Shown in pieces: positions 36,273 through 44,208 of a stretch of DNA of 64,000 nucleotides. The notes under the pieces are model-generated. The model saw only the letters and a program-made list of their open reading frames with translations. It was not told the DNA's origin and did not search any database. This stretch comes from a virus. The position numbers and the translations under genes were made by a program. The DNA lies in the UHGV virus genome UHGV-1493261; one strand, given 5' to 3'. Numbering within the stretch: the stretch's first letter is position 1; each line of letters begins with the position of its first letter.

Positions 36273-36941
36273 ATGCAAGAGATCACTCTCTCCGAACGTA
36301 CACTTCAGTTGCTGGCCAACTTTGAGACCATCAACCCATCTATCGTTCTGACACCGGGCAAGATGCTGCGCAGTATTAATGATTCTTCTACTGTGATCGC
36401 CGTGGCGCAGATCGAAGAAGACTTCCCGTTTGAGTTCCCGATTCTGGACCTGACCAAACTTCTGGCCATCCAGCGCCTACCTTCCTTCAAAGGTGCCAAA
36501 GCCGAATTTCATCAGGACTACATCCTGTTGAAAGGTGAAAGCTCTCAACTGCAGTTCTGGCGCTCCGCCAAAGAACTGACTGTGGTCCCGGCCGACACCA
36601 TCGAACTGCCTTCCGTCGACTTTGAAGCGATCATCACTCCAGAGAAGATGAAAGAACTGACCCGCGCCTGTTCTACCCTCGGACACAAGACTGTGCGCCT
36701 GGTTGCTCAGGGTGGCAAAACACGCCTGGTTGCAACCACCACTACCCTAGACAACTCCAACAACTACACTGTTGAGCTGGGCGAAACCGCACTGCCGGAC
36801 TTCGTAATGCCGCTGGATGTTGCCAACCTGAAAATGATCGAAGGCAACTACACTCTGCGTGCATGTGCTGATCTACAGATGGTGAACTTCCAATCATCCG
36901 ACGCGACGATCAATTACTTCGTCGGCGCACAGATTGAGTAA
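36273..36941 (+). CDS. gp45: Sliding clamp (gp45-like)
   Basis: 222 aa; N-terminus LSERTLQLLANFETINPSIVL parallels remembered T4 gp45 LSKDTTALLKNFATINSGIML; followed by the clamp loader genes. Confidence 0.85.
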   Translation: MQEITLSERTLQLLANFETINPSIVLTPGKMLRSINDSSTVIAVAQIEEDFPFEFPILDLTKLLAIQRLPSFKGAKAEFHQDYILLKGESSQLQFWRSAKELTVVPADTIELPSVDFEAIITPEKMKELTRACSTLGHKTVRLVAQGGKTRLVATTTTLDNSNNYTVELGETALPDFVMPLDVANLKMIEGNYTLRACADLQMVNFQSSDATINYFVGAQIE

Positions 36942-36960: not shown

Positions 36961-36998
36961 TATAATGTGTGGGCGGGGCGTTCCCCGCCTATTTGAAA
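36961..36998 (+). promoter_or_regulatory. Cassette: TATAAT, GC hairpin (GGGCGGGGCG-TT-CCCCGCC), ATTTGAAA
   Basis: One of five similar cassettes placed 15-30 nt upstream of start codons. Confidence 0.4.
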
Positions 36999-37021
36999 TG
37001 ATTCTTCTACACGAGGCTGAA

Positions 37022-38011
37022 ATGTCTAATATCACTATCGTTTCCGACCAGTACGCATGGGAAAACAAGTACCGCCCTGACAACCTGGACGAGATTATCA
37101 TCCCTCAAGACGTCCGCGCTAAAATCCATGGCTACATCACCAGCGGCAACGGCAACATCCCGTCTATGCTGTTCTACTCCCCTCAGCCTGGTACTGGCAA
37201 GACTACCTCTGCTCTGGCCGTGTGTAATGAAATCGGCTGTAAGCAACCACTGATGATCAACGCATCCCTGGACAACAGCATCGACGTTATCCGTGACCGC
37301 GTGATTCAGTACTCTACTGGTGTGAGTGTATTCGGTGGCCGCAAAGTCGTTATTCTCGACGAAGTAGAGCGTCTGTCTATGGCGGCACAGGAGTCGCTGA
37401 AGGGTATTGTGGAGAAAGTCTCCAAGAACTGTTCATTCATCCTGACCACCAACGCCAAGCAACGCGTGAACGAACCTCTGCGCTCTCGTTGCCGTGAAAT
37501 CGACTTTATCTGGAACGAGCAGGAAGCACTGGAAGTTCAGAACAAGTTCTGTTTGCGTTGCGTTGAAATCCTCCGCGCCGAAGGTGTTGAGTTCGTTCCC
37601 CAGGTTCTGGCTGCTATCGTTAAGCGCCATTTCCCCGATAATCGCCGCATTATGGGCACCCTGCAGGATAACGTCACCACCTATGGCAAGATTGACGAAC
37701 GCGCCCTGGCTGTGCTGAAAGCAGGCGATATGGGCACGCTGGTCGGTATGCTGAAGACTGAAGATTGGGCTGGTATGAAGCAATGGGTGACTGACAACCA
37801 GAACTACATCACAGAAGACTTCTATTCTCGCTTCTTCCAATTCTGTGTACCACAGGATAAAGAGAAGCCGACGATGGTTAAGAACGAGTCTATCCCAGAT
37901 CTGGTCTGTGTCTGTGGTCAGTCACAAATCGAACATCGTCAGGTGGGTGATGTGTGGCTTCACGCCGTTTATTTCCTGACCAACGTCATGCTCAACATTA
38001 AGTGGAAGTGA
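37022..38011 (+). CDS. gp44: Clamp loader large subunit (gp44-like AAA+ ATPase)
   Basis: PQPGTGKTT Walker A, VVILDEVE Walker B, SRC motif (PLRSRC); ATG at 37022 is Met20 of track ORF 36965. Confidence 0.9.
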   Translation: MSNITIVSDQYAWENKYRPDNLDEIIIPQDVRAKIHGYITSGNGNIPSMLFYSPQPGTGKTTSALAVCNEIGCKQPLMINASLDNSIDVIRDRVIQYSTGVSVFGGRKVVILDEVERLSMAAQESLKGIVEKVSKNCSFILTTNAKQRVNEPLRSRCREIDFIWNEQEALEVQNKFCLRCVEILRAEGVEFVPQVLAAIVKRHFPDNRRIMGTLQDNVTTYGKIDERALAVLKAGDMGTLVGMLKTEDWAGMKQWVTDNQNYITEDFYSRFFQFCVPQDKEKPTMVKNESIPDLVCVCGQSQIEHRQVGDVWLHAVYFLTNVMLNIKWK

Positions 38012-38015
38012 TACG

Positions 38016-38438
38016 ATGGCCGCTCCTGCACTGTTCGATTTCCGCAACGCGCTCATGGAAACGAAGGAAGATATCCTCCGCACGACTGACCCAGAAGTGT
38101 TGAAGGCATTTGACCCGTTCATGATCCGGCGCTGTTTTGCTCAGAGTAAGGACACACTGGTAACGGCAGAGCAGTTGAATAAACTGCACGCCATCACGCC
38201 ATGGATGCAATGGTCATATGCCTTTTACACCATTCCGGCTCGGAAACGCTACGACAAATGGTCTAAGAAAGGTCCGATTGATCCTGACGTGAAGTTACTC
38301 TCAGAGTACTTCTACATCAGCATGGAGAAGGCATCGGAGTACGTCCGTTTCTTGCCGAAGGAAGTTCTGGCCGAGATACGCGAGAAGATGGGACGTACTG
38401 AGCTGAACGCCAAAGCGAAACCGCGCAAGGCTAAGTAG
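38016..38438 (+). CDS. gp62: Clamp loader small subunit (gp62-like)
   Basis: Position between gp44 and regA as in T4; RKRYDKWSKK resembles T4 gp62 RGKRYGKWAKL. Confidence 0.6.
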   Translation: MAAPALFDFRNALMETKEDILRTTDPEVLKAFDPFMIRRCFAQSKDTLVTAEQLNKLHAITPWMQWSYAFYTIPARKRYDKWSKKGPIDPDVKLLSEYFYISMEKASEYVRFLPKEVLAEIREKMGRTELNAKAKPRKAK

Positions 38439-38467: not shown

Positions 38468-38932
38468 ATGGCGCGTAATACGCTAGACATATTGAATATT
38501 TCAGCAGTCAACGATGAGGCCAGCATCGTTGATTGTATGGTTGAAGTTCAATTGAACCAAGATCGGCCAGGTATATTCCTGGGGATCAAGGAAACACTGA
38601 GCCGGATTGGGGTAAACACGCGCCAAGAGCCGAATACTCTGTATCAGACTTGCCATATTCTTCATAAGTGTGGTAAGTATTATATCGTCCACTTTAAGCA
38701 TCTATTTATGCTGGACGGGCATTACAACGGATTTAACCGCGAAGATGTCCTGAGGATGAACCGAATCATCAAGCTGCTGGAGCAGTGGAACATGGTGAAG
38801 GTCATTCATCCCGAGCAGGTCACCGAAGCCGCCGATATGTCACGCATTAAAGTGGTTAAACACGATCAGGTTCCTGAATGGAAGCTGGTCCCAAAATACA
38901 TTATCCGGCCCACAAAGGCCAAAAGCGAATAA
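38468..38932 (+). CDS. regA: Translational repressor RegA-like
   Basis: LYQTCHILHKCGKYYIVHFKHLF and EWKLVPKYIIRP match remembered T4 RegA LYQSCHILQKKGLYYIVHFKEM .. EWKLVPKYTIGN. Confidence 0.8.
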   Translation: MARNTLDILNISAVNDEASIVDCMVEVQLNQDRPGIFLGIKETLSRIGVNTRQEPNTLYQTCHILHKCGKYYIVHFKHLFMLDGHYNGFNREDVLRMNRIIKLLEQWNMVKVIHPEQVTEAADMSRIKVVKHDQVPEWKLVPKYIIRPTKAKSE

Positions 38933-38948: not shown

Positions 38949-39821
38949 ATGACAACTACATTTTCTAAGAACGTGAATCTGAATCTGGCTTTCGGTAATG
39001 CAAAGGGCGACGTCACATCGCCTGACTTTGGTAAGATCCGCAATCAGGCGAAACTGGTGCTGGAAGAGACCCGCGAACTGCTGGAAGCGGCGTTCTTTGA
39101 CCATGATGTGAAGGTGGAATTCACTGCAACTCCACGAGTCCTGAAAGAACCTGTTGTTGTCGACATCAAAGGCATTATGCGCCAGATCATGGATGCCCAT
39201 GGCGACATCACAACAGTCAACGACGGTGTGGCTCATATTGCTGGTTTCGACGGTGACGAATGCCTACAGCGCGTGTATGCCTCTAACATGAGCAAGTTCG
39301 TCCGCAATGAAGGTGAAGTTGTTCCAGCGCTGGAGTATTACTACAACAAAGGCTTCCCACGCGAAAGTCTACGCATCGAAGGGGAATTCCCTCAGGCATG
39401 CATCAAAGTGGTGGACACCATCACCGTCGACGGCAAAGAATACCCGGCTGGCAAGTTCCTGAAGAACATGGCAACCTTCAAAGAGCCTGACTTCTCTGAT
39501 ATGTTGACCACCGAGCCTAAGCGCCAGATCACCGAAATCATTCTGACGGGCACGGCTACCCCAGGTCGACTCAGTTCTAACGAACATGCTGGTGTTGCCT
39601 ACGCGCCGTTCGATTTTATTGACGAGATCGTAGGATACACCAAGATGGGCTTCCAGGCGTTCTCTGGTGAAACAATCGAGAGTTATATTCCTGTGTTTGT
39701 TTTCAATGAAGACAACTTCCCAACTCTGCCGTTGATCTGGGGTGAATGGAAAGCCAACGTTCGTATCTATGTGTCCAGCCCAGTACAATCATCTATCACC
39801 CAACTGACCCGTATCGATTAA
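38949..39821 (+). CDS. Protein with N-terminal MazG-like (all-alpha NTP pyrophosphohydrolase) signature; candidate dNTPase
   Basis: LVLEETRELLEAAF carries the EExxE motif; sits where T4 has the DNA polymerase gene after regA. Remaining about 170 aa unassigned. Confidence 0.4.
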   Translation: MTTTFSKNVNLNLAFGNAKGDVTSPDFGKIRNQAKLVLEETRELLEAAFFDHDVKVEFTATPRVLKEPVVVDIKGIMRQIMDAHGDITTVNDGVAHIAGFDGDECLQRVYASNMSKFVRNEGEVVPALEYYYNKGFPRESLRIEGEFPQACIKVVDTITVDGKEYPAGKFLKNMATFKEPDFSDMLTTEPKRQITEIILTGTATPGRLSSNEHAGVAYAPFDFIDEIVGYTKMGFQAFSGETIESYIPVFVFNEDNFPTLPLIWGEWKANVRIYVSSPVQSSITQLTRID

Positions 39822-39843
39822 GATATACAGTTATTCACTAAAC

Positions 39844-39875
39844 AACAGAGGCTATAATGGCCTCTGTTTTCTTAT
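39844..39875 (+). terminator. Rho-independent terminator
   Basis: AACAGAGGC-TATAATG-GCCTCTGTT followed by TTTTCTT; the track ATG at 39857 lies in the loop. Confidence 0.6.
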
Positions 39876-39889
39876 TCTGTGAGGATACC

Positions 39890-41086
39890 ATGAAAGACAA
39901 AGCCCTGGACGTCCCGTACTGCGGTGTCCGCGAAGAAAAGATAAAGTCGGCCAAACCGGTTCTCAGTCCGACCCATACCCGCCTGTCTTACGAATGGATG
40001 CGCGATCGTTATCAGATCCACGTCAAGAAGGACGTCCAGCGCCTTCCTGCTCCTTGGACTGATAATCCCATATTACGCCAGGTTAAATTCTGTAACGTCC
40101 GGAGAGAGCACGACAGGCAGTCTCTCAACCTGATCAATAACATTGTCAAGAACGATGCTCTGGGCATGGCAGACAAGATGTTCAACTGCGTGTTGTTCCG
40201 CATGTTCAACCTCTGGGATCCGATCCAGGCTATCGGCGGCGCGATGACGATCAAAGAATTCGCCAAGATCAACCTCGATGCAACCCGCGAACGACTTCAG
40301 AAGTTCGAGGCCGACGGCGGTAAAGTATTCACCAATGCCTTCAACACGGGCGGTCTGAAGCAATGCCTGGCTTTCCCTGAGATGGTTGTCAACCACAAGG
40401 AGCAGCGCTTCGGTGGGATGATGGTGAATCTGATCTGTAAAGACGGTTCAACCCAGAACATGGATTATAAAGAAGCCAAGGCGATAGCCGAAGCAGAGCC
40501 GGACTTCTACACCATCGAAGGTTGGGAACCGTACATGCCAATGCGTGTCATCCGCTCCCTGAAGGCATTCGTCAACAAGTATCCAAATTATTTCCATGAC
40601 CTGCTGCGCCTTGATACGCCTTTGGAAGTATACCAGCGCATGTACGACGACATCGAAGGGCTTGGTCCATTCCTGGCCTATCAGATCTGGGTTGATTTCA
40701 CGTACATTCCTGGATATCCTTTCAGTGAGAACCACTTCACGGTTGCTGGACCAGGCTGTCGCGCAGGGATTGATCTTCTGTTCCTGAACAAAGACGGTAT
40801 GACCCACGAAGAATGCATCTTCTGGTTGCGGGACAATCAGGACGCAGTTTATGGTCCTCTTGGGTATAACAGGGAAGAATTTTGGTCTGAGGAAGAGCCT
40901 TGGGATCGCCATTTAAATATAATGGCAGGAGAAAATATGTTTTGTGAACTTCAGAAATATACCCGTTGTGTAGAGGCCATACAGCAAGGTAAAAAACCGC
41001 GCGGGAAGGTTGGATACGATGGGGAAGGACGACCTAAAGCGACGACATCTGGTTCTAAAAACCTACTAAATTTATTTAAAAAGTAA
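39890..41086 (+). CDS. Hypothetical protein (398 aa), enzyme-like
   Basis: ATG with GAGGA Shine-Dalgarno after the terminator; no family recognised. Confidence 0.6.
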   Translation: MKDKALDVPYCGVREEKIKSAKPVLSPTHTRLSYEWMRDRYQIHVKKDVQRLPAPWTDNPILRQVKFCNVRREHDRQSLNLINNIVKNDALGMADKMFNCVLFRMFNLWDPIQAIGGAMTIKEFAKINLDATRERLQKFEADGGKVFTNAFNTGGLKQCLAFPEMVVNHKEQRFGGMMVNLICKDGSTQNMDYKEAKAIAEAEPDFYTIEGWEPYMPMRVIRSLKAFVNKYPNYFHDLLRLDTPLEVYQRMYDDIEGLGPFLAYQIWVDFTYIPGYPFSENHFTVAGPGCRAGIDLLFLNKDGMTHEECIFWLRDNQDAVYGPLGYNREEFWSEEEPWDRHLNIMAGENMFCELQKYTRCVEAIQQGKKPRGKVGYDGEGRPKATTSGSKNLLNLFKK

Positions 41087-41145
41087 CTTACTTTGTGAGT
41101 TAATAAAGTATATTATAACAGGAACTTTCATTTGGAGTTCCTGTT

Positions 41146-42075
41146 ATGTTTTACGAATTATTGATTTCTAAAGGCGGTAAACCGCATTTTATCAAGAAGT
41201 ATTTGAGGATGATTCAATCTTTCAAATATTCTGATGGTGACTACACTGAATTACACCACATCCTTCCCAAGAGCATGTTCCCTGAATATTCTAAAGATAA
41301 GATCAATTTGGCAAGACTTACTGGCAGGCAACATTATCTTGCCCATGTGTGTTTGGCCTTGGCTTTCCCGAATTCTGATATGGTATATGCTGTTATTTTG
41401 ATGAGCCGTGGGGGTAGGTATACACCAACGGGTATAAAATTTAATTCTCACCTTTACGAAAAGTTAAGGAAAGAATTTGGACAAAGAATATCCAAACTCA
41501 CAAAGGGTGTCTCTAAATGCGTCGGGGCAAACAACCCAATGTATGGGAGAAGAGGAAAGAATAATCCCCAATATAGATATAAGAGAACTCCAGAGCAAGT
41601 CAAGAAAATTACCAAAGGATTGATGAAAATCCATGAAAGGATGGCTTCTGATCCTGAATATAAAAGGCGGGTTTTAGAGAAACGCCGCGCCAACATGGAT
41701 TTAGAACAATTTTCTGAACGTGCCAGGAAAGCTAAACTTGGGGAACTTAATCCAAATCATGGCAAAGATATTACCAACACGTTTACCCCTGAACAACGAC
41801 AGAAACAAATAGAAGGTATTAGAAAAGCCCATTTATCAAAAATGCCCTGGGAGAAACCGCGTTGGTCTGATGAAAAGGACATGTATTGGGCGAAAGCTGA
41901 TAAATTCCTTGAAGCAATGAAAACAATGAAAAGAGCGGAAGCCCTCATGCATGTGTACGGAACAAAGGATTTGAAGGCTTTTAATGCGACAAACAGCATT
42001 ATCGAACGTTTCAATAGAGGGTGGGAACCTTTGAAATGTCCTAAATGGACAGAACGATACGGTTCTTCTGAATAA
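41146..42075 (+). CDS. HNH homing endonuclease with NUMOD3-like motifs
   Basis: TELHHILPKSMFPEY .. NLARLTGRQHYLAHV HNH core; NPMYGRRGKNNP and GELNPNHGKD NUMOD3-like; AT-rich coding sequence; hairpin CAGGAACT..AGTTCCTG immediately upstream. Confidence 0.8.
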   Translation: MFYELLISKGGKPHFIKKYLRMIQSFKYSDGDYTELHHILPKSMFPEYSKDKINLARLTGRQHYLAHVCLALAFPNSDMVYAVILMSRGGRYTPTGIKFNSHLYEKLRKEFGQRISKLTKGVSKCVGANNPMYGRRGKNNPQYRYKRTPEQVKKITKGLMKIHERMASDPEYKRRVLEKRRANMDLEQFSERARKAKLGELNPNHGKDITNTFTPEQRQKQIEGIRKAHLSKMPWEKPRWSDEKDMYWAKADKFLEAMKTMKRAEALMHVYGTKDLKAFNATNSIIERFNRGWEPLKCPKWTERYGSSE

Positions 42076-42189: not shown

Positions 42190-44208
42190 ATGTCAGATTT
42201 TAAGTCCTTCGCAGTAGCTGTCAACAATAACGTGCTGGCCATGTCAGCAACTGGTCTGTTCATGACCAACATCGATAAAGATGCTCTGTGGGATCTGTAT
42301 CTGTCTTCTTTCCCTGCTGGCACTAACCCGCTTTATCGTGAGCGTACCGAGCACGACTGCACCTGCTGTAAACAATTCATCCGTAACATTGGCGGTGTGG
42401 TCACCATCGACTCCGACCTGAACGTGATCTCTATCTGGGATAACATTCAGCTGGGTAACGAATACGACGTTGTCTCTGCGGCGCTGTCAGCGTATGTTAA
42501 GCAGCACGCAATCGTCGACGTGTACTTCAACGACACCAAGAAAGTTGGTGTTGAGTCGAATCACGAAATGAAAGACGGTATTGTCCGCACCTACAACCAC
42601 TTCCACACCGACCTGCTGGGTAGCTATGTTCTGCGGGCAGATACCATCGCTTCTAAGAAGGGTGAAATCCGCCAGGCGATTGAAGTGTTTGAGCGCGGCC
42701 TGCGCGAACTGTCTCTGGAATCGGCTGAAATCGTCCTGGAACTGATCGATCAGAATTCTCTGTATCGCGGTGAAGAGCACAAAGCGGCAGTGCAGGCGTT
42801 CGTGGTGAACAAGACCATGTACGAACAAACTGCAGAAGAGAAACGCGCTCTGTGGGCTTGGCGCACTGGCTACCGTGCAAACGGTCATACCCCTCACGGC
42901 ATTCGTAATACCGTGATTGGCTCTCTGCTGGTAGACCTCAATGAAGGCCGGGATCTGGAAACCGCCGTGAAGTCCTTTGAAGCCAAAGTCGCTCCGACGA
43001 ACTACAAGCGCCCGACTGCGCTGGTGACAAAGTCGATGATCGAAAACGCGCAGAAAGAAGTCGAAGCGCTGGGTCTGACTGATTCGCTGGGTCGCCGTTA
43101 TGCCGTGTATGACGATCTGACCATCAACAACGTTCTGTTCGCCGATCTGGCAGCGCAGAAGAAGATGGACCCGTTTGCTCAACTGGCGTCTGAAGTGAAG
43201 ACTCCGACCAAGTCCCTGGATAAGGTTGAAGAGATCACCATCGACGACTTCCTGGCCAACGTGTTGCCAAAGGCGCATTCCATGGAAGTGCTGGTTGAGA
43301 ACTCTCACATTGGCAACCTGATGTCTCTGATCGCTCCGGCGAACCCAGATGCACCTAACCTGTTCAAGTGGAACAACGGCTTCAGCTGGTCATACAACGG
43401 TGAAGTGGCAGACTCCATCAAAGAGCGCGTGAAGACCGCTGGTGGCAACGTTGACAGCTTCCTCCGTGTGTCACTGGCTTGGCATAACAACGACGACCTG
43501 GATCTGAGCCTGAACGATCCTCTTCACAACCACGTGTACTTCCGCAACCGTCGTTCGTCAACAGGTGCAACCCTGGACATCGATATGAACGGTATGGATG
43601 GCATTGACCCAAATCGCCGTCCGGTGGAGAACATCTTCTTCAGCGATGAACGCAAGCTACGTGACGGGAATTATGAGTTCTATGTCACCAACTACAACAA
43701 GCGTGAAACCTGTGACGTTGGCTTCGAAATCGAAGTCGAATACAAAGGCCAGACCAAGCGCTTCTCACATCCTGGTCTGGGTAACAAAGATCGCACGTTG
43801 GCTGTTGTGGTTCAGGTTCGCGCTGGTCAGGTAGTAGACATCCGTTCCACCCTGAAAGACGACGAACGCTCTCAGGAAATCTGGGGTATCAAGACTGCTA
43901 CCTTCCAGAAAGTACAGCTGGTCCTGAATTCACCAAACCATTGGGACGGCGAGCAGACGGGCAACAAGCACGTGTTCTTCATCCTGGAAGGTTGCGCCAA
44001 CCCTGTGGGCACCCGTGGCTTCTACAACGAATATCTGAAGCCGGAACTGGATAAACACCGCAAGGTTTTTGAAATGTTAGGTGGTAAGATTAAAGTACAG
44101 CCAAGCACTGAGCAGCTGTCCGGTCTGGGCTTCTCTACCACCCAACGCAACCACGTGTTCGTGAAGGTGAGCGGCTCGTTCAACCGCACTGTGAAAGTTG
44201 TGTTCTAA
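42190..44208 (+). CDS. Hypothetical protein (672 aa)
   Basis: Uninterrupted ORF with AGGAAG Shine-Dalgarno; contains HDCTCC and EMKDG motifs but no family recognised. Confidence 0.7.
   Translation: MSDFKSFAVAVNNNVLAMSATGLFMTNIDKDALWDLYLSSFPAGTNPLYRERTEHDCTCCKQFIRNIGGVVTIDSDLNVISIWDNIQLGNEYDVVSAALSAYVKQHAIVDVYFNDTKKVGVESNHEMKDGIVRTYNHFHTDLLGSYVLRADTIASKKGEIRQAIEVFERGLRELSLESAEIVLELIDQNSLYRGEEHKAAVQAFVVNKTMYEQTAEEKRALWAWRTGYRANGHTPHGIRNTVIGSLLVDLNEGRDLETAVKSFEAKVAPTNYKRPTALVTKSMIENAQKEVEALGLTDSLGRRYAVYDDLTINNVLFADLAAQKKMDPFAQLASEVKTPTKSLDKVEEITIDDFLANVLPKAHSMEVLVENSHIGNLMSLIAPANPDAPNLFKWNNGFSWSYNGEVADSIKERVKTAGGNVDSFLRVSLAWHNNDDLDLSLNDPLHNHVYFRNRRSSTGATLDIDMNGMDGIDPNRRPVENIFFSDERKLRDGNYEFYVTNYNKRETCDVGFEIEVEYKGQTKRFSHPGLGNKDRTLAVVVQVRAGQVVDIRSTLKDDERSQEIWGIKTATFQKVQLVLNSPNHWDGEQTGNKHVFFILEGCANPVGTRGFYNEYLKPELDKHRKVFEMLGGKIKVQPSTEQLSGLGFSTTQRNHVFVKVSGSFNRTVKVVF

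Follow-up and report, generated by a model that had tools for sequence, protein, structure and literature searches.

In phage T4, the polymerase gene 43 is located next to regA. In the 64,000-nucleotide stretch of the virus genome UHGV-1493261 that we analyzed (from here on, the window), the gene order 45-44-62-regA is followed by two other open reading frames (ORFs), here called ORF1 and ORF2, which raises the question of what these two genes do in this position. Our analyses support that both genes are most likely accessory parts of a thymidine hypermodification system of the type found in Salmonella phage ViI. ORF1 encodes a MazG-like protein, and ORF2 encodes a member of the Pfam family PF18723 with a predicted Glu/Cys active site and a C-terminal tail that resembles the tails of the DNA polymerases of related phages. 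An earlier note on this DNA had proposed that two enzyme-like genes at 38949 to 41086 occupy the place of the polymerase gene, and this was borne out: both ORFs are present there on the plus strand (Table 1), and a family-B DNA polymerase (PolB) was found neither in the slot after regA nor, using tblastn, anywhere else in the window.

The window DNA is 95% identical to that of Escherichia phage vB_EcoM-RPN242 (Ackermannviridae, Aglimvirinae; from here on, RPN242), and many Salmonella, Dickeya, and Klebsiella phages of the Ackermannviridae are 78 to 90% identical to the region at the DNA level. By its sequence, the window phage is a ViI-like Ackermannviridae phage. In ViI, the type member, regA is followed by orf00161, which is annotated as MazG-like, and then by orf00160, and PolB is encoded elsewhere (at 145.1 to 148.1 kb in ViI and at 141.4 to 145.6 kb in RPN242). 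ViI DNA carries 5-(2-aminoethoxy)methyl-deoxyuridine (5-NeOmdU), which is made post-replicatively from 5-hydroxymethyl-deoxyuridine (5-hmdU) by the DNA kinases gp67 and gp243, the serine:DNA transferase gp247, and the pyridoxal phosphate (PLP) decarboxylase gp226 (PMC5889632, PMC8989533). The window is part of a phage genome, and the completeness of the pathway was judged from the RPN242 and ViI genomes. Outside the region that matches the window, RPN242 encodes kinase 1, a thymidylate-synthase homolog, a protein similar to deoxynucleoside monophosphate (dNMP) kinases, dUTPase_2, the PLP enzyme, kinase 2, the transferase, and PolB, all with 61 to 91% identity to ViI. In tblastn searches of the window with the ViI pathway proteins, only the counterparts ORF1 and ORF2 were found, and the kinases, hydroxymethylase, transferase, and polymerase were not. 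These results agree with the statement in the earlier note that the window has no hydroxymethylase or kinase. They also fit its suggestion of a non-glucosylated, hmU-derived modification, because ViI carries 5-NeOmdU and RPN242 encodes every ViI pathway enzyme. Proteins 100% identical to ORF1 and ORF2 are already in public collections.

ORF2, which had been left unassigned, matches Pfam PF18723 (HMUDK_hel, formerly "aGPT-Pplase clade 1") with 264.9 bits (cut-off 25) and an E value of 1.1e-78 over positions 4 to 280 of the 281-position profile. It is 76% identical to ViI gp160 over 405 residues, and the order regA, MazG-like gene, gp160 is the same. Judged by sequence and gene order, ORF2 is the ortholog of ViI gp160 (orf00160, Vi01_130c, YP_004327501), which Lee et al. 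(2018) named "aG/PT-PPlase1" and whose lysate was one of five with which 5-NeOmdU was reconstituted for ViI (PMC5889632). Searches of PDB sequences and NCBIfam with ORF2 returned nothing. The ATG at 39890 is preceded by a GAGGA Shine-Dalgarno sequence at 39880 to 39884 and agrees with the starts of ViI gp160 and RPN242 gp121. The ATG at 39857, from which a mechanical ORF list starts ORF2 (409 aa), is an unlikely start because it lies inside a terminator-like hairpin and because the ATG at 39890 has the Shine-Dalgarno sequence. We note that this hairpin has TATAAT in its loop, and that ORF1 and ORF2 may be transcriptionally uncoupled or differently regulated. The name of the Pfam family points to a 5-hmdU DNA kinase; we rejected this function for ORF2, as it has no GxxxxGK[ST] P-loop and no kinase-family match, and as the 220-aa P-loop protein gp67 of ViI, encoded beside thyA, is a different protein. 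ViI gp67 (PF18748) and gp243 (PF18747) match kinase models at 1e-116 and 1e-169, respectively.

PF18723 is encoded in all thymidine-hypermodifying phages examined, i.e., ViI, M6, PaMx11, PhiW-14, SP10, and Acinetobacter phage SH-Ab 15599 (from here on, 15599). ViI gp160, PaMx11 gp50, and 15599 gp16 belong to this family, and the transferases ViI gp247 and PaMx11 gp46 belong to PF18724 ("ADDT"). Among relatives with 46 to 47% identity, one locus (L009) has the order PolB ... kinase 2, transferase, PF18723 ... kinase 1, thymidylate-synthase homolog, dNMP-kinase-like gene, dUTPase_2. A second such locus (L010) has the order kinase 2, transferase, two other genes, PF18723 ... 44, 62, regA, a reverse gene, MazG-like gene. 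PF18723 is fused to a kinase in SP10 gp186 and in locus L030, and the PF18723 gene gp50 of PaMx11 adjoins the kinase gene gp49. In 15599, which also belongs to the Ackermannviridae, the transferase gene is located right after regA, in the slot of ORF1 and ORF2 (L006, 3922 to 5251), and the PF18723 gene gp16 (L006, 8961 to 9926) is located beside the hydroxymethylase gene. The text of the 15599 paper contains no mention of "gp16". Based on the compact clusters, the kinase fusions, and the arrangement in 15599, we regard PF18723 as a firm member of the pathway, and such genes recur in the slot after regA.

The structure model predicts an all-helical fold for ORF2 like that of helix-hairpin-helix DNA glycosylases, and the best-covered structural match of the model is a transferase acting on 5-PmdU, the kinase product of 5-hmdU. 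Compared with short PF18723 members, ORF2 has an insertion of ~65 residues (about aa 155 to 225). Among PF18723 members down to 20% identity, R72, E73, D75, R104, N107, T148, F261, Y264, D269, G287-P288-G289, E348, C352, E353, K356, and Y357 are invariant. The first three lie in an Arg-rich motif, a candidate DNA-binding or base-flipping loop, that resembles by eye the Arg-rich ERRHxRG loop of the transferases (PMC11472151); the two loops were not matched to each other in an extended hhalign alignment of low confidence. The last five form a Glu/Cys motif in the last long helix, which we predict to be the active site. The transferases require a Glu and a Cys spaced by four residues (E243/C247 in the PaMx11 transferase PUGT): once the Cys has attacked C6, the phosphate is lost, and a nucleophile is taken up at the exocyclic methylene (PMC8989533, PMC11472151, PMC13458397). 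Both residues are essential in M6 gp51, ViI gp247, and the 15599 transferase. Using hhalign, D339-R-x-x-N343...E348-N-x-x-C352 of ORF2 was placed on D234-R-x-x-N...E243-T-x-x-C247 of PUGT, and "GLGPF" on the "FGPW" helix. Because its invariant Glu/Cys pair is like the essential pair of the transferases, ORF2 probably targets, by attack on C6, a uracil in DNA that carries a substituent at position 5, i.e., 5-hmdU or 5-PmdU. From these likenesses, ORF2 is most likely a base-flipping enzyme and a distant paralog of the amino-acid:DNA transferases.

The C-terminal tail of ORF2, SGSKNLLNLFKK (ending ...SKNLLNLFKK), is a predicted sliding-clamp docking motif, and the last 17 residues (382 to 398) are disordered in the structure model, with a predicted local distance difference test (pLDDT) score below 50. 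Tails of this kind end PolB (...HKRRVNLLSMMGKKG in ViI and ...KRRVNLLAMMQKKKG in RPN242, with the end also given as ...RRVNLLSMMGKKG), kinase 2 (...SSVSLLGLMRKA, i.e., ...SVSLLGLMRKA, in ViI and ...SRSLLDLMKKG in RPN242), the transferase (...STSVNLMSLLKR, i.e., ...SVNLMSLLKR, in ViI and ...NSVNLMALLKR in RPN242), and gp160 (...GSVNLLDRLKKPE, with the end ...SVNLLDRLKKPE, in ViI; the RPN242 protein is the ortholog of ORF2). A scan for the tail pattern covered every ORF of at least 60 aa in the window and at 30 to 157 kb of ViI (about 1080 ORFs), and the expectation was derived from shuffled tails. The pattern matched PolB, kinase 2, the transferase, gp160/ORF2, one 70-aa protein, and one doubtful case, with ~0.3 matches expected, and ORF2 was the only matching ORF in the window. 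The 70-aa protein (Vi01_049c in ViI, L002, 356 to 568; gp040 in RPN242, L089, 1623 to 1835) ends ...DKVNLLSLMRK; in RPN242, it is encoded next to the DNA ligase, and it is a further candidate clamp ligand.

Three additional lineages were scanned with the tail patterns ...K[KR]LW, ...xD[ILF]F(G), and ...[DE]EW[LIF], respectively. The KLW lineage (L009, L027, and L028) yielded 9 matches among 203 ORFs with 0 expected; kinase 2 ends ...KTKKLW, the transferase ...KTKRLW, PF18723 ...GTKKLW, and PolB ...KKKVNVLKFFK. For the DLF lineage (L010 and L026), 6 of 275 ORFs matched (0.9 expected), with the ends ...VFDIFGA, ...LNDFFG, and ...VLDLF for kinase 2, the transferase, and PF18723, respectively, and PolB is not in the locus. 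The DEWL lineage (L031, L036, L041, L051, L071, and L073) gave 24 matches in 444 ORFs (2.7 expected), and here kinase 2 ends ...SGMDEWI, the transferase ...STLGEWI, PF18723 ...CSIDEWL, and PolB ...NFEMDEWLI; a tail of this type is likewise found on the PLP enzyme (...EIDEWLKESE). Thus, kinase 2, the transferase, and PF18723 have tails that co-vary across the four lineages, and PolB matches in the two closely comparable lineages (ViI-type and DEWL). The tail is never present on kinase 1, the thymidylate-synthase homolog, dUTPase_2, or the MazG-like ORF1. In T4, the similar and interchangeable C-termini of gp43, gp55, and gp33, which are carried on an unstructured linker, are ligands of the clamp gp45 (PMC2988020). 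Because the tail of ORF2 is the same as the PolB tails of ViI and RPN242, and because the tails co-vary across lineages, we infer that ORF2, kinase 2, and the transferase most likely dock on the gp45 clamp and act just behind the replication fork. We consider it fairly probable that, in T4-like phages, gp45 serves as a "toolbelt" for the enzymes of post-replicative thymidine hypermodification, i.e., kinase 2, the transferase, PF18723, and in some cases the PLP decarboxylase.

Taken together, these data support a joint reading in which ORF2 would be held on the gp45 clamp, which is encoded 3 kb upstream, and would work on freshly made DNA behind the fork. In this reading, ORF2 would be a clamp-tethered, Cys-dependent, base-flipping hypermodification enzyme acting on 5-hmdU/5-PmdU in nascent DNA, and ORF1 would be a deoxynucleoside triphosphate (dNTP) pyrophosphohydrolase that conditions the nucleotide pool; we have moderate confidence in it. 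A narrower proposal concerns how residual 5-hmdU becomes thymidine, which has been stated to be an unexplained step of the pathway (PMC5889632). Because this step is unexplained and PF18723 is encoded in every known system, we considered that PF18723 on the clamp could make thymine, with 5-PmdU as an intermediate, from 5-hmdU that escapes hypermodification in nascent DNA. Cys352 of ORF2 would attack C6, loss of the phosphate would give the exocyclic methylene, and a hydride in place of the amino acid would then yield thymine. Thymine is our preferred guess for the product, although we regard this specific reaction as improbable.

Several observations weigh against the joint reading. With regard to catalysis, hhalign of PF18723 against ADDT gave an E value of 0.039, no better than the 0.041 of an unrelated control; BLASTP of ORF2 against ViI gp247 returned nothing; and ORF2 had no ADDT Pfam match at E values up to 0.1. 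Because the hhalign E value equals that of the control, the correspondence between ORF2 and the transferases rests on the likeness of the motifs and the fold match. The published 5-NeOmdU steps are assigned to purified ViI kinase, gp247, and gp226, the 2021 paper assigns no function to gp160, and the homologous M6 gp55 is dispensable for the first transfer step. With regard to the clamp, binding is predicted from sequence only, the PolB tail of the KLW lineage is only loosely similar to the tails of the enzymes, and 15599 gp16 has no such tail. Finally, the adjacency of ORF1 and ORF2 is not conserved in L010, where the MazG-like gene is near regA and PF18723 is with the transferase and kinase 2 genes across the clamp-loader genes, and we rejected this adjacency as a conserved unit; the 187-aa gene that adjoins PF18723 in L010 is unrelated to ORF1.

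A further point of this kind comes from uncultured phages. As a co-occurrence check on the thymine proposal, we inspected 78 IMG/VR loci with 10-kb flanks visible, using small kinase and transferase profiles (the kinase profiles were built from three sequences each) that may miss divergent members; in about 40 contigs of 30 to 55 kb with PF18723, no kinase or transferase was detected within 10 kb. Because of these contigs, the substrate of PF18723 may not always be 5-PmdU. Either the kinase and transferase genes lie farther off or are too divergent for the small profiles, or PF18723 also acts on unphosphorylated hydroxymethyl-pyrimidines. The PF18723 neighbors in these contigs include dCMP deaminase, a distant MazG-like gene (hhalign E value of 9.5e-4 against the ORF1 family), and HD and NT5C phosphohydrolases, and a TET-associated glycosyltransferase gene is located beside PF18723 in 12 loci. 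The group L029 to L078 has a module (e.g., L035, 7490 to 13540) with the order DUF2786, HD, one other gene, PF18723, (TET-associated glycosyltransferase), dCMP deaminase, MazG-like gene, primase/helicase, PolA, which may represent a different, undescribed hydroxymethyl-pyrimidine modification pathway.

Two other explanations of ORF2 have to be weighed against a Cys-dependent enzyme on the clamp. It could be a non-catalytic module for recognition of DNA or hmU that guides the 5-hmdU DNA kinases and sets the sites of modified thymidine. The Pfam name "5-hmdU DNA kinase, helical domain", the fusions to a kinase in SP10 gp186 and L030, and the neighboring gp49 and gp50 of PaMx11 are in agreement with this, as is the observation that PF18723 is dispensable for the in vitro steps reconstituted so far; moreover, hypermodification is sequence specific (TG/TC sites), and the source of this specificity is not assigned. 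However, the SP10 kinase domain is active alone, ViI-like phages keep the gene apart from both kinase genes and with its own polymerase-like tail, and many contigs carry PF18723 without a kinase gene within 10 kb. Also, invariance of the Glu/Cys pair and several polar residues down to 20% identity would be unusual for a pure binding module, and we consider a targeting function rather unlikely. The predicted fold would also suit an ordinary helix-hairpin-helix DNA glycosylase that serves in repair or attacks host DNA and has no role in modification. Sequence identity to those glycosylases is only 5 to 14%, however, and the best-covered structural match is the 5-PmdU transferase. This explanation is also at odds with the membership in PF18723, the tight clusters with kinases, transferase, and hydroxymethylase in relatives, and the use of gp160 in the published reconstitution mixture, and we consider it very unlikely.

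ORF1 is 58% identical to ViI gp161 (orf00161), which has the same position in the order after regA. On sequence grounds, ORF1 is the gp161 ortholog and a MazG-like all-alpha NTP pyrophosphohydrolase. Membership in the MazG/all-alpha NTP pyrophosphohydrolase superfamily had been suggested in the earlier note from an EExxE-type motif. This motif is present, and the assignment is supported by the invariant motifs, by the match to PHROG 2144 ("MazG-like pyrophosphatase"; 4.5e-130), and by the match of the ORF1-family profile to the MazG-like NTP pyrophosphohydrolase DR2231 of Deinococcus (3.7e-8). In an alignment of 47 relatives, the invariant columns are E40, E43, D82, D86, G93, K169, and K172, and helices 27 to 48 and 73 to 98 of the ORF1 model carry the ExxE and DxxxD motifs, respectively. 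Among these 47 relatives, 19 match PRA-PH, 8 match MazG-like, and 8 match MazG in Pfam. The PDB sequence search with ORF1 returned nothing. A HMMER scan of 1.84 billion representatives identified 240 ORF1 relatives; nearly all align to residues 1 to ~187 only, and the three nearest clusters alone have the ~100 residues at the C-terminus. This C-terminal domain is found in Ackermannviridae only and had no Pfam match and no structural match. In the window and in ViI, an end of the ...LTRID type occurs on no other ORF, and the invariant tail suggests a specific partner. A homologous MazG-like domain is also encoded near regA in the metagenomic phage L010 and in the thymine-hypermodified phage PhiW-14, and relatives of the N-terminal domain with ~50% identity are found in N4-like phages; in phiA41, the one we inspected, the gene is located among structural genes. 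Two points here weigh against a part for ORF1 in modification: full-length ORF1 has no direct Pfam or NCBIfam match, and no modification genes flank its relative in phiA41.

We suggest that ORF1 would condition the nucleotide pool as a dNTP pyrophosphohydrolase, most likely by reshaping pyrimidine dNTPs; a role in the pyrimidine pool is plausible. In the literature, we found no functional study of an ORF1-type protein of the Ackermannviridae. The earlier note had likened ORF1 to enzymes that exclude canonical nucleotides, such as T4 gp56, which we take to be a dUTPase_2 family member of the same broad all-alpha superfamily. On this view, ORF1 would cleave dTTP (and dUTP) so that newly made DNA takes up hmdUTP rather than thymidine, in the way that T4 gp56 acts on dCTP. 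Its MazG-like fold and metal-binding motifs are compatible with this, and DR2231, its nearest sequence-detectable solved relative, is known as a dUTP-selective pyrophosphatase. In addition, a distant MazG-like gene is often located within 2.5 kb of PF18723 in unrelated contigs, and PhiW-14, with its homologous domain near regA, is known to induce dTTPase activity (PMC13458397). However, the one characterized Ackermannviridae dTTPase/dUTPase, which cleaves dTTP and dUTP and not 5-hmdUTP, is 15599 gp18 (PMC13458397), in which a dNMP-kinase-like domain is fused to a dUTPase_2 domain. ORF1 has no similarity to gp18 by BLASTP and no match to PF08761 (dUTPase_2, the dimeric dUTPase/dCTPase family). 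The gp18 counterparts, Vi01_059c and Vi01_058c in ViI and gp050 and gp049 in RPN242, are encoded as pairs beside the hydroxymethylase gene, outside the window; Vi01_058c matches PF08761 at 8e-10 and 15599 gp18 at 4e-8. With this activity located in a dUTPase_2 protein elsewhere, and with N-domain relatives at 50% identity in N4-like phages, where the one inspected lies among structural genes and without flanking modification genes, the exclusion of canonical nucleotides by ORF1 is not supported, and we consider a dTTPase function possible but doubtful. ORF1 could also be a general house-cleaning or pool-feeding pyrophosphatase with no bearing on the choice of base in DNA, which, e.g., hydrolyzes dCTP or dGTP so that the monophosphates supply dCMP deaminase and thereby dUMP, or which removes aberrant dNTPs; the MazG of a cyanophage reportedly prefers dGTP and dCTP. 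The family of the ORF1 N-terminal domain is widespread in phages with and without a modification pathway, and dCMP deaminase and MazG-like genes adjoin in many contigs. By its title, one study (PMC6850273) found a cyanophage MazG to be a pyrophosphohydrolase. Against such a general function, the added C-terminal domain and the invariant Ackermannviridae-specific tail suggest a more specific partner or role, and we see house-cleaning as a tentative possibility.

Table 1. Features of the window around ORF1 and ORF2 (nucleotide positions in the window; residues numbered within each protein)
Feature	Position	Strand	Remarks
Sliding clamp gene (gp45 homolog)	36273..36941	+	RPN242 ortholog annotated sliding clamp; ViI ortholog gp45
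Gene 44 (clamp loader)	36965-38011		Pfam, PHROG
Gene 62 (clamp loader)	38016-38438		Pfam, PHROG
regA (translational repressor)	38468..38932	+	Pfam Translat_reg 2.1e-34; anchors synteny
ORF1, MazG-like, 290 aa	38949..39821	+	ORF list
ORF1, N-terminal MazG-like domain (about aa 1-187)	38949-39509	+	
ORF1, first metal-binding helix motif LVLEETRELLEA (residues 36-47)	39054..39089	+	E40, E43 invariant in 47 relatives
ORF1, partner motif D82...D86	39192-39206	+	Invariant in alignment of 47 relatives
ORF1, K169/K172 (PAGKFLK)	39453-39464	+	Invariant in alignment of 47 relatives
ORF1, C-terminal tail ...ITQLTRID, [IV]TxL[TS]RID (residues about 272-290)	39762-39818	+	Last 20 residues disordered in model, sequence invariant
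Terminator-like hairpin and T-run between ORF1 and ORF2	39844..39868	+	11 pairs, 5 G-C; fold -18.8 kcal/mol, z -3.6
ORF2, PF18723, 398 aa	39890..41086 (stop)	+	Start at ATG 39890; ortholog of ViI gp160
ORF2, Arg-rich motif R71-R72-E73-H74-D75-R76	40100..40117	+	R72, E73, D75 invariant even in PaMx11 gp50 and 15599 gp16
ORF2, Glu/Cys motif E348-N-M-F-C352-E353-L-Q-K356-Y357	40931..40960	+	Invariant; predicted active site
ORF2, C-terminal tail	41048..41083	+	Predicted sliding-clamp docking motif
Hairpin with 15-bp stem over Shine-Dalgarno sequence and ATG of homing endonuclease gene	41114-41148		-17.8 kcal/mol, z -5.2
HNH/NUMOD-type homing endonuclease gene	41146-42075		PHROG 655, 2e-60
Gene for 672-aa protein conserved in Ackermannviridae	42190-44208		PHROG 1735 (unknown function); no Pfam or NCBIfam match
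HU-like ORF, 92 aa	54625-54903		

Downstream of ORF2, a homing endonuclease gene separates it from the gene for a 672-aa protein. Because the endonuclease gene is present in some relatives only (in ViI, Vi01_129c directly follows gp160), it is a mobile insertion beside the modification gene. The hairpin over its translation start could act as a translational lock; locks of this kind are found in homing endonuclease genes of phages. The 672-aa protein is split in the ViI record into Vi01_128c and Vi01_129c, both of which are noted as orf00158. The HU-like ORF to which the earlier note had pointed is present, and by eye its sequence resembles a typical member of the HU/IHF family; its ortholog is annotated as a DNA-binding protein in RPN242 and ViI. 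PolB of RPN242 is annotated as two coding sequences (L090, 11440 to 15622) with a 293-aa ORF and a small reverse ORF between them, and contigs of the DEWL lineage likewise encode PolB in two parts; the polymerases of RPN242 and of this lineage are split or interrupted by an intron or intein.

The two genes are ordinary for this phage family; the pathway has been described before, and published work already has names for the orthologs. In the literature that we consulted, we did not find the polymerase-like tail on DNA-acting enzymes or the family-wide invariance of the Glu/Cys pair in PF18723. The word "clamp" does not occur in PMC8989533 or PMC5889632, and our literature search found no proposal that these enzymes dock on a clamp. 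With an invariant Glu/Cys pair on a transferase-like fold, PF18723, a pathway member without an assigned reaction, is a concrete candidate for testing. The predicted clamp tail is a testable lead. According to an older finding, the modifications arise with or immediately after replication (PMC5889632). Tethering to the clamp would fit this timing because the enzymes would act at the fork and, if true, would provide a simple physical explanation for modification with or just after replication. If true, it would also add DNA base modification to replication and late transcription as processes served by the clamp in the toolbelt concept of T4.

Among known systems, ViI gp160 is the closest to ORF2: it is the ortholog, belongs to the same Pfam family, and has a C-terminal tail of the same style, and the HNH homing endonuclease gene that follows ORF2 is absent in ViI. 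The 5-hmdU DNA kinases (ViI gp67, PF18748, and gp243, PF18747) belong to the same pathway, are fused to PF18723 in SP10 gp186 and L030, and share the ORF2 tail in the case of kinase 2, whereas ORF2 has no P-loop. The amino-acid:DNA transferases (PF18724 ADDT, "aGPT-Pplase clade 2", including ViI gp247, M6 gp51, and PaMx11 gp46/PUGT, PDB 8Z2M) differ from ORF2 in that it has no ADDT match or BLASTP similarity to them, and the published transfer steps did not need a PF18723 protein. Compared with DR2231 of D. radiodurans (PDB 2YEU) and Exig_1061 of Exiguobacterium (PDB 3NL9), ORF1 has an additional C-terminal domain of ~100 residues and the invariant ...LTRID end. For 15599 gp18 and dUTPase_2, which we take to belong to the same broad superfamily as ORF1 and which have the role once proposed for it, there is no detectable similarity. 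Like ORF2, the T4 proteins gp43, gp55, and gp33 end in a short hydrophobic motif that follows a disordered linker, and the motif is common to the polymerase and other DNA-tracking proteins. For the phages studied here, docking is a prediction from sequence, and the tails differ in charge and in their carriers: the tails of the T4 clamp ligands are acidic, whereas the ViI-type tail is basic (…NLLxxMxKK) and is carried by base-modifying enzymes.

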